A program made the position numbers and the translations under genes. The notes beneath the pieces were generated by a model. That model was not told the origin of the DNA and did no database searches. It saw only the letters and a program-made list of their open reading frames with translations. From Escherichia phage Ec_Makalu_001, in sequence record MN894885.1: 64,000 bases of DNA, one strand, 5' to 3'. Below are positions 22,890-29,912 of this stretch, piece after piece. Position 1 is the first letter of the stretch; each line of letters opens with the position of its first letter.

Positions 22890-22934
22890 TTTTGATTCTC
22901 CGTTTAAGAAAGTGTGTTTCGTTTTGATGTGTGT

Positions 22935-22963
22935 AGTATAGGGGATACGTGATCCCCTGTCAA
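22935..22963 (-). promoter_or_regulatory. early sigma70-like promoter, palindromic spacer (TTGACA-GGGGATCACGTATCCCC-TATACT)
   Basis: Minus-strand; upstream of 103-aa gene. Confidence 0.5.
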
Positions 22964-22976
22964 CAACTTTTTTGAA

Positions 22977-23453
22977 TTATTTTTCTTGATGCTCGCGCTC
23001 GTACTTTTCGAAATAAAATTCTACTGGCTGGTCATGAATTGACAGCAAGCCAAAGCGTTTAGCCGCTCGCAATCCCATATTGCGCTGAATGTACTTCTGG
23101 AAGTTCTCGCGTATACACTTACGCCAGTATTCTAAGCCCATACAGCTTTTATAAAGATTGCATTGCACACACGCCGGATTCATGTTATCAAGTATATCAT
23201 GCTCCGGTTTATGCATTCCTACAACCTTATACTTCCACGATCCATCATCGTTACGGGCAATGCGACCATTTTCATCATAGACTACTTTTGAGCGTCGTAA
23301 TACTGGTTTGATGTGGTCTGCGTGCCAGCGATCCCCTAGTTCCTCACCACAATAGGCACAACGTCCACCGTATTTCATTTTCAGGATCTGGCGTTGCTCT
23401 TTCTTTGACAATTTTTTAGGTTTAGGGGCTTTCGCCCCTTCATTATCACACAT
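22977..23453 (-). CDS. HNH endonuclease
   Basis: 158 aa; CAYCGEELGDRWHADHIKPV ... N ... CVQCNLYK (Cys4 / H-N-H pattern). Confidence 0.6.
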   Translation of the reverse strand: MCDNEGAKAPKPKKLSKKEQRQILKMKYGGRCAYCGEELGDRWHADHIKPVLRRSKVVYDENGRIARNDDGSWKYKVVGMHKPEHDILDNMNPACVQCNLYKSCMGLEYWRKCIRENFQKYIQRNMGLRAAKRFGLLSIHDQPVEFYFEKYEREHQEK

Positions 23454-24948
23454 CGAATACCTCTTTTACTGTATTTGCAGTGGTCTTGTCGTAGCGAATA
23501 CGTTTGATGATTGGGAGAAATAAAGAGAACTCCGGTTCATCTTCTTTACGTGATTTGCTGCGAATGTACCCGTTGCATGTCATCTCAATGACTTTTCCAA
23601 TCAGGTTATGACGGTCAGCCCATAACATTTCTCGGTCGAGTTCATTTCGACGATCGAACGGAATTACACGTTCAATACCATCATCATCTTTTTCGGTTGT
23701 GGTGTCGGTCAATCCCGATCCGGTGTTAGTCGTCATTCGTCCGCACGCACTACGGACAGTAAAACCGCCTACCTTGTTAGGATCTTTACTATGCGGATAT
23801 ACATCAACAATTTCCGCGTCGAAGTCAATCACTTCTTTAAATTTAACCTGATCTTTACTGCGACGATCTTCAAATACACCATGTAAATTTTTAAGGATAA
23901 TACCTTCCAATCCCATGTTTACATAGCGATGATATACTTCGCGAGCTTCATCGATATTGTTAACTACAGTGTTTTCGATTATCTGAACACGAGGATCGTT
24001 AAGTTCTTCAACAATCTGTTTTAGTTCTTCGAATCGATCTTTATATTGCTTCGTTGCTTTCTCGTTTCCGTAATACACATCACGGTCGATAACATCCCAG
24101 ACAGTGTAAACAATACATTGGGCTTCTTCTTTTGGAATAGTTCCTTTCAGTGATTTGTTGAGGATACCATTTCCGGTCTGACGGTCTGCAACAACGGATT
24201 CTTTCACTGCTTCCGCTACTGGCGTTAATGGCATTTCCTCTTCTTCAAATATCCATGATAGAGTACCATCATAAACGCTCTCAACGAAGTTCTGCGCTGG
24301 TGTTTGAGAAAGGGTAGGCATATATACCAACTCACCATCTAAAACAATTCCACGGCCTCGTAGACGCTCTAAAACAGCAAACAAATCATCCAGCCCCTGA
24401 TAGGTATTACCTGAACGGGTATAGATTGCTAATGTTTCTCCGTCAATATCAGCCATACCACGAGCGCCATCGCTTTTAAGTTGTGCATACGCCGGATATT
24501 TGATATTGGCAATAGTCTTATCAGAACATGACGATGCAAGGTGGCAAGGTTGCTGAGGAATCAGCTTCTTCCATACCTTGTTTGCGGTGGTAGCGGAACA
24601 ACCGCATTCCAGATCACGATTCAGGACCATCATTGCAACTTTAGCATCATCTTCTGACAAGCAAGTCAGAGTATCGGTAACTAGCTGTAATGCAGCATTA
24701 CCAGTTACTTGACGCGTGGCAAGTTTATTTTTAAAGACCTGTAATGCACCGGATAAAGACAATACAGACGAATAGCGAGACGGTTTATCGTATTTCTTTA
24801 CGCCAAACGTAACCTGCTTGCAATATGCCAGATAAAAGCATTCTTTCAGCGTTTCATTGCTTGCAGATTCTTTCAGGATCTTTTCTTTCAGCGATGTTTT
24901 GTCAGTGGCTGCAAGCTGATTAATGATATTAAGAATTGACATTTTCAC
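23446..24948 (-). CDS. 30: ATP-dependent DNA ligase gp30
   Basis: 500 aa; similarity to T4 DNA ligase incl. FPAYAQLKSDGARG (KxDG adenylation motif) and DGELVY. Confidence 0.9.
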   Translation of the reverse strand: MKMSILNIINQLAATDKTSLKEKILKESASNETLKECFYLAYCKQVTFGVKKYDKPSRYSSVLSLSGALQVFKNKLATRQVTGNAALQLVTDTLTCLSEDDAKVAMMVLNRDLECGCSATTANKVWKKLIPQQPCHLASSCSDKTIANIKYPAYAQLKSDGARGMADIDGETLAIYTRSGNTYQGLDDLFAVLERLRGRGIVLDGELVYMPTLSQTPAQNFVESVYDGTLSWIFEEEEMPLTPVAEAVKESVVADRQTGNGILNKSLKGTIPKEEAQCIVYTVWDVIDRDVYYGNEKATKQYKDRFEELKQIVEELNDPRVQIIENTVVNNIDEAREVYHRYVNMGLEGIILKNLHGVFEDRRSKDQVKFKEVIDFDAEIVDVYPHSKDPNKVGGFTVRSACGRMTTNTGSGLTDTTTEKDDDGIERVIPFDRRNELDREMLWADRHNLIGKVIEMTCNGYIRSKSRKEDEPEFSLFLPIIKRIRYDKTTANTVKEVFDV

Positions 24949-25408
24949 CTCGTTTTGTTAAACGTTCACGAATATCGTTTAGGATACTACAAAATTCCGA
25001 TTCGGTCAATATGGTCTTTAACGGATCAGTTCCACCTATGCTATGACGCAATTTCTTATTTCCGGTAGCGAGCAATGCTTTACAAAAATCTGGGTTATTT
25101 CGTGCCATCGTAACAAATGCCAGATGTACCAGTCTGTAATAATGCTCACTCATTCGATGAATCGGGCGACCCTGAAAATATAGCATGTGATTCTCTATCT
25201 TTTCAGTCCTTCCGGTTCTTTTTGCTTTGCAGCCGTGCATCAAAAAGATTTCTCTTTGTCTCTGAGGGTTCTTAAATCTTAGCCCCTGTAAAAATCCTTC
25301 TGTGCTGTTAATATCGCAACCAAATAGACGGAATGGCCTTTTATTGAAATTACTCAACTCGCCAGATGGATAAGGTCCACCCGCATAGATATCAATTTCA
25401 GAAGTCAT
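24929..25408 (-). CDS. NADAR / YbiA-like domain protein
   Basis: 159 aa; pattern resembling E. coli YbiA family (SNF...F, EGFLQ, ALLATGNKKL). Confidence 0.45.
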   Translation of the reverse strand: MTSEIDIYAGGPYPSGELSNFNKRPFRLFGCDINSTEGFLQGLRFKNPQRQREIFLMHGCKAKRTGRTEKIENHMLYFQGRPIHRMSEHYYRLVHLAFVTMARNNPDFCKALLATGNKKLRHSIGGTDPLKTILTESEFCSILNDIRERLTKRGENVNS

Positions 25409-25562
25409 TGAAACTAATCTCGCTAATCAGAGAGAACGGATCATAATCGTCATGAGGAATATCGATAGTAATCGAGTGAGGATTTACCCATACACCAAAC
25501 TGGTCTTCTTCGGTGAATACTTCGGTATGGATTTCGTGGATGTTTACATTCATAGTTTTCAT
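25398..25562 (-). CDS. hypothetical protein (54 aa)
   Basis: Manual ORF below track cutoff; AGGAA RBS; overlaps start of downstream NADAR-like gene. Confidence 0.3.
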   Translation of the reverse strand: MKTMNVNIHEIHTEVFTEEDQFGVWVNPHSITIDIPHDDYDPFSLISEISFNDF

Positions 25563-25645
25563 AATAAAAATTCCTTAATAATCAATAACTTACAAAATCA
25601 TATAGCCAAAATATAGGCGGGATTATTTCCCGCCGTTTAAACTCA

Positions 25646-25969
25646 TTAACCGTAAACTACCACAATATTCTGTTTGTGTGTTACAGTCCATTTCAGGTCG
25701 ATCTCTTCTTCCTTCTTAACGCCGTTAATAACGTCTGGATGAGGAACTTTATTCATCTTGCCGTGTGGCAGTAGAACAGTTTTACCCAGCAATTCTTTAT
25801 CTACAGTTTCACCAATATCAATAATCTTACCTACCAGCGGAATCTCGCCCATAGTGCGCTTTTGCTCAATAATGATCCCCATAGAGCTTTTTACTTCGGT
25901 TCCTGCGCTTTCTGCTTTAGCTTCGATAATTACATAATCACCAAGTGCTTTAGGAGTTTTAACGGTCAT
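25646..25969 (-). CDS. 31: co-chaperonin gp31 (GroES-like)
   Basis: 107 aa; similarity to T4 gp31 (GDYVII, VPHPDV); synteny with cd and pseT. Confidence 0.75.
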   Translation of the reverse strand: MTVKTPKALGDYVIIEAKAESAGTEVKSSMGIIIEQKRTMGEIPLVGKIIDIGETVDKELLGKTVLLPHGKMNKVPHPDVINGVKKEEEIDLKWTVTHKQNIVVVYG

Positions 25970-26009
25970 AATTTCTTACCTCTTCAAATCAATACAGTTT
26001 AATGATGAA

Positions 26010-26330
26010 TTATTTATAAATTTCGACGATCTGCGCTGGAGTCAGCCCGTCTACATTAATCAGACTATCAAGCCCAAAACTACGGAAACCTTCAACTGCA
26101 ATTTCATATACTGGCAAAGATGTTTCTGATTCTTTACGCGGTTTTTCTACATTAGGAACTAACCATTTTTCGTATGTTTCAAAAGGCATCAGTACCGGAT
26201 CTCGCGTGGCGATCATCTCGCGGACAGTACCATCTTTCTTAGTAAACTGCAAAGAGTGAGTACCGACCGAAAACATTTTCTTTAGTGCTTCACGAAGTGC
26301 GATAATATCAATTTGTTCAGTCATTATCAA
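26010..26330 (-). CDS. hypothetical protein (106 aa; 31.1 position)
   Basis: ORF between cd and 31. Confidence 0.4.
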   Translation of the reverse strand: MIMTEQIDIIALREALKKMFSVGTHSLQFTKKDGTVREMIATRDPVLMPFETYEKWLVPNVEKPRKESETSLPVYEIAVEGFRSFGLDSLINVDGLTPAQIVEIYK

Positions 26331-26844: not shown

Positions 26845-27048
26845 TTAACCGTATACGCGAAAGTATTCTACTGACCCGTCGCTATACTGTTTTACATTGA
26901 ATGTATTCACACCATGATTATTTCTCATGATGACATATAAACTACGACGTTCATCGCTAAACGGCATAACTGGTGCTGGTTCAATGTCAACATTAAAACC
27001 ACGTTTAGCAAGTGCTTCGCCTAATTTCTTGATTTTATCGGTAAACAT
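26845..27048 (-). CDS. hypothetical protein (67 aa)
   Basis: ORF abutting cd and pseT. Confidence 0.35.
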   Translation of the reverse strand: MFTDKIKKLGEALAKRGFNVDIEPAPVMPFSDERRSLYVIMRNNHGVNTFNVKQYSDGSVEYFRVYG

Positions 27049-27926
27049 TAAAAGTCTCCGTAGTTAACCTGAAAACATTCTACACCGATTGTGCGGTACA
27101 TGTCAACCACTTGGTCACGGTCATCCACTGCCAAAACAACATGATAACGTGGTGCAATTTCCGAGAAAAAGATCTCTTTCTTCACTTCATGATCTGGACG
27201 TCGATCATTAGTTTCACGCTGGAAGTGATCGCTAGGTTCAATACCCTGTTCACGCAACCATTGCAGCGTATCTTCTTCGCAAACATCCTCACGCCCTGAG
27301 CATGTAATGATACGATAACCATTATCACGATACAGTTTAAGCATTTCGATCACTTGCGGACGCGGTTTATCTTCTTTGACCTTTGTCCAGTCAAACGGAT
27401 GACGACCGCCCTTATCCGCTAATGTTCCATCAATATCAAAGATCACTGCCTTTGGCAGCATGGTATTCGGTTTGTATACTTCTTGACCCATATATTCCTG
27501 CATCAGATAAAATTGGTTACGCAAATGAGATAGCGGAATTGCTTTCTCGCCGCGATAGAAATTACGTTTCTTTAGTGTCTCAAACGGTTCATTGAACACT
27601 TGTTCAGTATACACCGCATTAAATTCTTTTGCAAGTTCTTTGTAGAATACACGATGTTTTTCTTTCAGGTTGGTATCAGAGATAATGATACTCAATCCGC
27701 GTGATAGAGTCTCGCGAGCAATCATTCTCTGAACAGACTCTACCAGCTTTTCCTTTTCCTTAGTATATTTGTATTTCAAAGGTGAGTCAACACCAAACAA
27801 CATAAGACGAAGATCATCACGATTCACATTACGATAATTACTAAACCGTTTACACGTTTCCATAGCCCATGTAGTTTTACCGGACCCAGAACAACCAACG
27901 GTTAAAATCACTTCACATTTCGGCAT
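27048..27926 (-). CDS. pseT: polynucleotide 5'-kinase / 3'-phosphatase
   Basis: 292 aa; strong similarity to T4 Pnk (P-loop GCSGSGKTTWA; phosphatase motif VIFDIDGTLA; C-terminus GVECFQV). Confidence 0.9.
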   Translation of the reverse strand: MPKCEVILTVGCSGSGKTTWAMETCKRFSNYRNVNRDDLRLMLFGVDSPLKYKYTKEKEKLVESVQRMIARETLSRGLSIIISDTNLKEKHRVFYKELAKEFNAVYTEQVFNEPFETLKKRNFYRGEKAIPLSHLRNQFYLMQEYMGQEVYKPNTMLPKAVIFDIDGTLADKGGRHPFDWTKVKEDKPRPQVIEMLKLYRDNGYRIITCSGREDVCEEDTLQWLREQGIEPSDHFQRETNDRRPDHEVKKEIFFSEIAPRYHVVLAVDDRDQVVDMYRTIGVECFQVNYGDF

Positions 27927-28378
27927 TATTTCTCCTTCGGTTTACACCGTTCCTCATTGAGTTCTTTGCGATAATAACACATGATCAACTTACTTTCAAG
28001 TGTATATCTCTTAATATCAGCCAACCAGACTCTAAATTTTTGGGAGTCCTCCCATGACATAGAAACTCTAGGCTTACCGTCTATTGTATCCACATTCAGG
28101 TCAATGTCAACTTTTTCTATTGGTGCTGGTAGTGGTGGATGTAATTTCGGTTCCTGTGAATAATGGTCCAGTGTACACGAAGAAAGAGCAAATACAATAG
28201 GCACAGCGAAGACATGGATTATGGCGGTCTGAAAATTCTTATGTGTTTTCTTAAATATCCAGTGTATCACGAAAATTGAAAACACCATCAGGATAATAAT
28301 GCTTGCACCTATCCACAGATAATCAACCAGATTAAAATTGCTTATCTGCTCTTGCGTAGGCAATATTTCTATGCTCAT
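27926..28378 (-). CDS. membrane protein (one N-terminal TM helix)
   Basis: 150 aa; hydrophobic segment LWIGASIIILMVFSIFVIHWIF. Confidence 0.45.
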   Translation of the reverse strand: MSIEILPTQEQISNFNLVDYLWIGASIIILMVFSIFVIHWIFKKTHKNFQTAIIHVFAVPIVFALSSCTLDHYSQEPKLHPPLPAPIEKVDIDLNVDTIDGKPRVSMSWEDSQKFRVWLADIKRYTLESKLIMCYYRKELNEERCKPKEK

Positions 28379-28698
28379 TTAGTAGCCTCCTTTAATTCTT
28401 CGGTAAACTCCTTAAATGAGTCATTAAGCTGTTTCTCTACCAACTTGGGTTTTTGTGCTACTACATAGCCTCGTGTAGCGTCTTTCATTGCTTTGTTTTG
28501 TTCTTCTGCAAACTTAGTTCTTATTCCGTACATATCCTTTTGTAGTGAGTCTACGACCTTCATCTTTTCATCTGTCTTTTTCTTATACTCTGTAAATTCC
28601 TGATTCAGTCGATCTACCTCCTTTTTATTTTCCCACCACATATTGCCACCTACCCCCAGCAACACAGATATGATAACAATGTATATCAGCTTTGACAT
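28375..28698 (-). CDS. membrane-anchored coiled-coil protein
   Basis: Start assigned to internal ATG 28696-28698 (MSKLIYIVIISVLLGVGG...). Confidence 0.4.
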   Translation of the reverse strand: MSKLIYIVIISVLLGVGGNMWWENKKEVDRLNQEFTEYKKKTDEKMKVVDSLQKDMYGIRTKFAEEQNKAMKDATRGYVVAQKPKLVEKQLNDSFKEFTEELKEATK

Positions 28699-28742
28699 AT
28701 TACCCCCAACGACAAAAGGCGGGGAACTAGCCCCGCTTATTA

Positions 28743-29912
28743 TTACCAATCAATCTTATCAGCCGGAATAAGTTTCTTATAATTCCGTAGATAGTAAGTT
28801 TTCATTGAATCCAGAATACGGTCATAATCAAGGCCATCAAATGCAATCATCAGACACATGAAAATATATGCTTGTGCATCACCATGTTTACGTGATTCGA
28901 TAGTCGCATTTGATGCATATGTCTTTCTGTCTTCTCCAGCGTGTGCGTTATAAAATTCTGTTGCTGTCGTGAAGGCATTGCGAAGAATAGACCTGAATGC
29001 TTCCTCGAATAGCTCGATTCGTTCCAGTGCTCCCGGTTCGCCTTCATATGCAGCACGCAAATCATCGGTTTCGCTTTCTACGACATAGTAGATCAAGTTA
29101 TTAGGAAACATCGATGTATTTTTAATGTTATGCACACCAATATACCATTCACTTTTCACCTTGAACATCTGTCCGTCTTTGGTTCGTGCAACAATTCCTT
29201 CGATACCTTCTGCGGTCCGAACTTCGTCAAGAATATTGCCAAAACGCGCTGAATCAACCTGTAACGCATTTACCAGATGAGGACGTAGGATTGCGTCAGC
29301 AAATAGCATTTGATGCGGTACGTACTCTCCTGTGACGTTATGGCGTACATTCAGAAGTGTTAGCGACGGTTCAGAATATTCTACAACAATTCGGTTGCTG
29401 GGTGCTGTATATTCAAAGTTGAAAGTATAATCAGATCCAATATCGGCGATCTTAGCACGTAGTTCCGCATACTTCTCTGAATACAGAAGACCGTTTGCTC
29501 TCTCTGCCTGGCTTGAGTACAAGGCCGCTTTAGACTTCAACTGAACATAGCCGTTATCAATGTATGTGCTTACTAGACTACCGTCCATTTTGTCCATGAC
29601 CATTTCCACATCTTCCGGCTTAAAGCGAGCGCGATCATTCTCGCCTAAATTAAAAAACTTCTCCATAGGACGAGATGCAATGCGGACCGGACGACCTTTA
29701 TCGTCAATTTCAAACATGATCCCGCGACACTCTAACGCATCTGGTTTATTCCACATTTCCGGTTTGCTCAAGTACAGATAGCTAAAAATGCGCATACGGG
29801 TTTGCATCGCCGTAATTTCATCTTTGTAATAGAACGTATCAGATCCGTCACATAGTGCCATCAGATTTTTGAACAATGCTAAAACTTTTTTGTTGTTTTC
29901 TTTTGTTGACAT
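28743..29912 (-). CDS. rnlA: RNA ligase 1
   Basis: 389 aa; strong similarity to T4 Rnl1 (DALECRGIMFE, RIASRPMEKFFNL, KxDGSLVS). Confidence 0.85.
   Translation of the reverse strand: MSTKENNKKVLALFKNLMALCDGSDTFYYKDEITAMQTRMRIFSYLYLSKPEMWNKPDALECRGIMFEIDDKGRPVRIASRPMEKFFNLGENDRARFKPEDVEMVMDKMDGSLVSTYIDNGYVQLKSKAALYSSQAERANGLLYSEKYAELRAKIADIGSDYTFNFEYTAPSNRIVVEYSEPSLTLLNVRHNVTGEYVPHQMLFADAILRPHLVNALQVDSARFGNILDEVRTAEGIEGIVARTKDGQMFKVKSEWYIGVHNIKNTSMFPNNLIYYVVESETDDLRAAYEGEPGALERIELFEEAFRSILRNAFTTATEFYNAHAGEDRKTYASNATIESRKHGDAQAYIFMCLMIAFDGLDYDRILDSMKTYYLRNYKKLIPADKIDW

Follow-up and report, generated by a model that had tools for sequence, protein, structure and literature searches.

The gene 30.3 product of the RB49-like phage Ec_Makalu_001 is an orthologue of T4 AdfN with an arginine at the position of T4 lysine 43

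In Escherichia phage Ec_Makalu_001 (MN894885.1), a small gene that carries the label 'hypothetical protein' in most Krischvirus records lies against the gene for DNA ligase, and the locus raises the question of what this gene does and whether its neighbours have any part in it. The original prediction, made from the letters of a 64,000-nucleotide stretch of this genome (hereafter the window), was that the gene encodes a NADAR/YbiA-like protein that could reverse the guanine ADP-ribosylation of phage DNA by DarT-type toxins, or regulate the phage's own ADP-ribosyltransferases (ARTs). The 159-aa open reading frame was confirmed on the minus strand with an ATG start (Table 1). The same interval, 24929-25408, contains no alternative-frame ORF of at least 40 aa on the same strand and two antisense ORFs, of 46 and 52 aa; in T4, an internal out-of-frame ORF, 30.3', is annotated inside adfN (L002 7403-7630).

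Table 1. Positions in the window of the gene under study, its neighbours and the two ART genes
Feature	Coordinates	Strand	Remarks
Shorter ART, 274 aa	12216-13040	-	PF03496 above cutoff; in tandem with the Alt-like gene
Alt-like ART, 683 aa	13120-15171	-	PF03496; aligns with T4 Alt at 26% identity along nearly all of its length
Free-standing HNH endonuclease gene, 158 aa	22977..23453	-	
Gene 30, ATP-dependent DNA ligase, 498-500 aa	23446..24948	-	PF01068; phrog_114
adfN / gene 30.3 orthologue, 159-aa single-domain phage-type NADAR	24929..25408	-	ATG start
orf54, 54-aa ORF	25398..25562	-	phrog_15277, full-length match; = RB49p215
Terminator-like G+C hairpin followed by a T-run, directly past gene 31	25616..25634	-	

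A megablast search with positions 22900-26000 matched 59 phage records at 95-99% identity, and every one is an RB49-like member of the genus Krischvirus (family Straboviridae) with E. coli or Shigella as host. Ec_Makalu_003 encodes the same protein (100% identity), whereas the RB49 copy differs from it at 2 residues; the gene is already named '30.3' in the existing annotation of RB49 and JSE. The PF08010 profile ('Bacteriophage protein GP30.3') scored 133.6 bits against a cutoff of 36 and was covered at positions 2-138 of 138, and the phrog_652 match to the adfN product scored 156 bits. T4 gp30.3 aligned at 38% identity over residues 3-150 (E 4e-31), with the alignment reaching the last residue of the T4 protein, and no second gp30.3-like sequence was found in the window. 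The gene order 31 ... 30.3 ... 30 is also common to this phage and T4. The PF08010-type family comprises more than 4,000 clusters at 90% identity by profile search and 977 representatives at 50% identity (E <= 0.001) by an exhaustive search for the family, and a homologue was present in 1,509 phage records, mostly of T4-like phages of enterobacteria, Acinetobacter, Aeromonas and Vibrio. The gene is the Krischvirus orthologue of T4 adfN, and its product is a minimal single-domain NADAR-fold enzyme.

Membership in the NADAR superfamily was less easily seen from sequence. The PF08719 (NADAR) profile gave 14.9 bits (E 0.032), below its cutoff of 35.1, and the family profile met the YbiA sequence at an E of only 0.17; a sequence search of solved structures returned only a spurious match to DltA and a match to a neck protein. 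Sequence alone was insufficient to decide on NADAR membership, and we therefore relied on a comparison of folds. The predicted structure and the motifs place the protein in the superfamily (YbiA fold), so that the NADAR/YbiA-like assignment of the original prediction held at the level of fold and motifs, but the PF08719 match proposed as its check fell short of threshold.

The catalytic constellation is conserved. In the alignments, E37 is the counterpart of T4 E36, the catalytic Glu, and H122 that of T4 H123, the His that defines phage NADARs. Both columns are invariant in an alignment of 132 sequences of the close family, and among 148 diverse representatives the Glu is found in 144/148 and the His in 145/148. 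The E-x6-K/R spacing is common to this protein, T4 AdfN (E36/K43), PnNADAR (E43/K50) and C7 NADAR (E88/K95). Over the 36 columns conserved in at least 80% of the diverse set, this protein matches 34 and T4 AdfN 31. The protein is full length, and a C-terminal helix is predicted with high confidence at residues 136-157. Since the gene differs from its RB49 counterpart by 15 synonymous and 2 non-synonymous codons, the comparison indicates that this copy is under purifying selection.

With T4 AdfN the protein shares the PF08010 domain, the minimal fold, the catalytic Glu, the phage-type His, the C-terminal helix, an E. coli host and a location in the region between gene 31 and gene 30, while it differs in its 7 extra C-terminal residues and in having R44 where T4 has K43. 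The differences from the bacterial NADAR antitoxins are larger. In the DarG1-type antitoxins (E. coli C7; Geobacter lovleyi NADAR, PDB 8bat) the last-strand residue is Asp rather than His, and 8bat, at 219 aa, is longer than the phage protein, which has the core domain only; the DNA channel of the antitoxins is formed by an N-terminal extension of helix and beta-sheet that the phage protein lacks. The neighbours here are orf54 and DNA ligase, with no adjacent DarT toxin, so this NADAR is an orphan; it is not the DarG1 antitoxin of a DarTG1 operon, and PADLOC returned no match for it, nor for T4 AdfN. In E. coli YbiA (PDB 2b3w) and the Phytophthora NADAR (PDB 8bau) the last-strand residue is Glu. 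YbiA serves as an N-glycosidase on riboflavin intermediates, and the families of these two proteins, unlike the T4 phage NADAR, can remove cytidine-ADPr as well.

What is known of T4 AdfN bears directly on the function of its Krischvirus counterpart. Gene 30.3 of T4 was renamed adfN by Johannesman et al. (Nat Commun 2025; PMC11825919), who assigned DarTG1 resistance to it by chimeric-phage mapping and showed that its deletion renders T4 sensitive to DarTG1. RB69 is DarTG1-sensitive and carries a frameshifted allele that has lost its last 15 residues, including the C-terminal helix, and it was rescued by ectopic adfN-T4; AdfN-T4 was impaired by E36A, by K43A and by C-terminal truncation, and the purified protein, but not its E36A form, removed ADP-ribose from DarT1-modified DNA (PMC11825919). 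AdfN-T4 is fully effective only when the infecting phage is a T-even, so that a further factor of these phages may be required (PMC11825919), and it was unable to replace DarG1 in uninfected cells. Activity of T4 gp30.3 on G-ADPr has been demonstrated in vitro (PMC11125620), and among the nucleic-acid substrates tested the enzyme acted on guanosine-ADPr only, with no activity on thymidine-ADPr or cytidine-ADPr (PMC11825919, PMC11125620, PMC12945103). In a HIDEN-SEQ transposon screen, insertions in 30.3/adfN were lost only with DarTG1, the gene being dispensable on a host without it. Removal of guanine-ADPr from DNA together with DarTG1 resistance has been shown also for the unrelated NADARs of Bas32 and Bas60. 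A literature search combining Krischvirus or RB49 with DarTG found nothing relevant.

Taken together, these findings make it probable, at about 80% in our estimate, that the gene acts as AdfN does in T4, its product being an ADP-ribosylglycohydrolase that would counter DarTG1 by stripping ADP-ribose from guanine in phage DNA. Upon infection of an E. coli cell carrying DarTG1, DarT1 would ADP-ribosylate guanines of the phage DNA and thereby block replication. AdfN, probably produced from the ligase transcription unit, would bind ADP-ribose with R44 facing the diphosphate and the pair E37 and H122 facing the distal ribose. Cutting of the N-glycosidic bond to guanine would then restore replicable DNA. 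The residue roles in this scheme are carried over from NADAR structural work, in which the distal ribose is assigned to the Glu and to the residue of the last strand, a His in phage NADARs, and the diphosphate to the Lys; the guanine-ADPr DNA substrate and the anti-DarTG1 phenotype would follow those of the T4 orthologue. Because the activity data are those of T4, we infer the function of the Krischvirus copy from orthology, fold and residue conservation, and the identity to the characterised T4 protein, just 38%, is a point against it. The expectation that a phage NADAR reverses guanine ADP-ribosylation by DarT is thus well founded, having been demonstrated for the T4 orthologue, and orthology, fold and catalytic residues argue for the same in this copy. 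The mechanism is correct yet already published for T4, and hence not new. For the Krischvirus gene it would mean a concrete function, anti-DarTG1 counter-defence, of use in annotation and in predicting the host range of RB49-like phages considered for therapy.

The sole addition to current knowledge is the fixed Lys-to-Arg variant. The residue aligned to T4 K43 is Arg (R44, codon AGA), so that the phosphate-coordinating Lys is replaced here, and the same Arg is found in RB49. The equivalence of R44 and K43 was judged from pairwise and multiple alignments and from the E-x6-K spacing, which is identical in T4, PnNADAR, C7 NADAR and YbiA. In the close family this column is Lys in 129/132 sequences and Arg in 3/132, namely this protein, its 97%-identical cluster and one 69%-identical relative; of the 148 diverse representatives, 136 have Lys, 8 (~5%) have Arg and 4 have another residue there, and six of the eight Arg carriers have the catalytic Glu intact. 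We regard R44 as a conservative variant under selection; it retains the basic charge and would be compatible with catalysis, and it gives no ground for excluding the protein from the family. The in vivo potency of an Arg enzyme is nonetheless not guaranteed, because the K95R form of E. coli C7 NADAR kept G-ADPr hydrolysis in vitro and lost the rescue of cells from DarT1, and because rescue by T4 AdfN K43A was only partial (PMC11825919). It is mainly on account of R44 that our confidence in full anti-DarTG1 activity in vivo stays below certainty. A further reservation is the T-even dependence of AdfN-T4, as a Krischvirus may not supply the factor concerned; T4 30.1 and 30.2, for example, were without homologues in the window.

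The most serious alternative starts from this residue. The Krischvirus NADAR could have been weakened or retargeted by K44R, together with W78F, such that it no longer gives effective protection from DarTG1 and acts mainly on another ADP-ribose conjugate, with G-ADPr on RNA and the conjugate made by some other guanine-directed toxin ART as candidate substrates. The loss of antitoxin function by C7 NADAR with hydrolysis intact fits such a view, as does the confinement of Arg to this lineage among close relatives; moreover, RNA G-ADPr is also removed in vitro by all NADAR families, and the in vitro activity of NADARs is known to diverge from their protection in vivo. However, the recurrence of Arg in diverse representatives, mostly alongside the catalytic Glu, speaks against it, and R44 is fixed in RB49 as well as here, in a gene that is under purifying selection. 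All the other conserved active-site columns are kept, and Lys to Arg is the most conservative change of a phosphate ligand, one that catalysis survived in C7. We therefore consider the weakened or retargeted enzyme unlikely and retain the AdfN function. That the fixed substitution in RB49-like phages marks a functional shift and is not neutral, be it a shift to another toxin or substrate or an escape from the T-even co-factor dependence, seems similarly doubtful. If there were such a shift, the RB49-like phages would offer a natural experiment on the determinants of NADAR specificity in vivo. The same change, when engineered into a bacterial NADAR, left catalysis in vitro intact but removed protection in vivo, and the natural variant may bear on a question left by the published work, that of what sets NADAR specificity in cells.

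A second alternative, also raised in the original prediction, is that AdfN serves the phage's own Alt-like ARTs, either by controlling them or by reversing the ADP-ribosylation that they place on molecules of phage or host. The window does encode two proteins with an ART domain (PF03496, above cutoff), and in T4 and the Acinetobacter phage ZZ1 the alt gene lies directly beyond the ligase. But the ART genes of this phage are ~10 kb off with many genes between, and homologues of AdfN exist in phages without a nearby ART. Alt-type ARTs modify arginine on proteins, and of the nucleic-acid conjugates tried, the T4 enzyme acts on guanosine-ADPr and not on those of T or C; its deletion phenotype, too, is specific to DarTG1, and the gene is dispensable where DarTG1 is absent. 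A part in regulating the phage's own ARTs is accordingly very improbable. In the window, which makes up ~40% of the phage genome, we found no homologues of T4 AdfA (61.2), AdfM (tk.4), ModA or ModB. Equally improbable is a substrate other than DNA, either soluble ADP-ribose-derived molecules (immune signals or RNA-repair by-products) or riboflavin intermediates acted on by a YbiA-type N-glycosidase, as this view is older than the direct demonstration of DNA de-ADP-ribosylation and of the DarTG1 phenotype for T4 gp30.3, the last-strand residue is His and not the Glu of the YbiA family, and the repair-gene neighbourhood is ordinary T4-type synteny.

There remains the proximity to the ligase and HNH genes, which the original prediction had noted. 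With neither 30.1 nor 30.2 in between, the gene lies immediately against the ligase gene; in T4 the two lie between 30.3 and the ligase gene, and in ZZ1 30.2 does. Adjacency to the ligase is inherited gene order, in synteny with T4 and ZZ1. The homologues in Aeromonas phiAS4, Sinorhizobium phiM12 and Vibrio phage 6E35.1a have unrelated neighbours. At the position of the HNH gene T4 has alt.1 and alt, and we found no evidence of joint action of the HNH gene and the NADAR. We thus rejected a functional module of NADAR, ligase and HNH nuclease, given that the linkage is absent in those three phages and that T4 differs at the HNH position. Directly beyond the HNH gene, RB49 and JSE have ~350 extra bases (RB49p211) that are missing here, and the HNH-side junction is therefore variable within the genus Krischvirus.

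The 3' end of orf54 shares 11 nt with the adfN start codon region, and on account of this overlap at the adfN start the two genes are probably co-transcribed and translationally coupled. The adfN stop lies within the start of the ligase gene, the overlap being 14 nt with the ATG used in RB49 or 20 nt with an upstream GTG, and the ligase stop is in turn overlapped by 8 nt by the HNH gene. The hairpin that closes gene 31 forms the upstream limit of the series, and these tight overlaps together with the hairpin therefore make orf54, 30.3, 30 and the HNH gene a single tightly packed block, which is probably co-transcribed. Between the gene-31 terminator and orf54 we found no convincing sigma-70 promoter match and no late TATAAATA box. 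In T4 the place of orf54 is taken by 30.4, which has no detectable similarity to it. On the other side of gene 31, between it and the dCMP deaminase gene, a homologue of gp31.1 (26010-26330, minus strand) has a WYL_2 / Sm-like SH3 beta-barrel domain (PF10902, 38 bits). Further on, a T4-type RNA-repair set occupies 27048-29912 on the minus strand, with pseT (polynucleotide kinase/phosphatase) at 27048-27926 and rnlA (RNA ligase 1) at 28743-29912, the two being separated by a pair of spanin-like ORFs.
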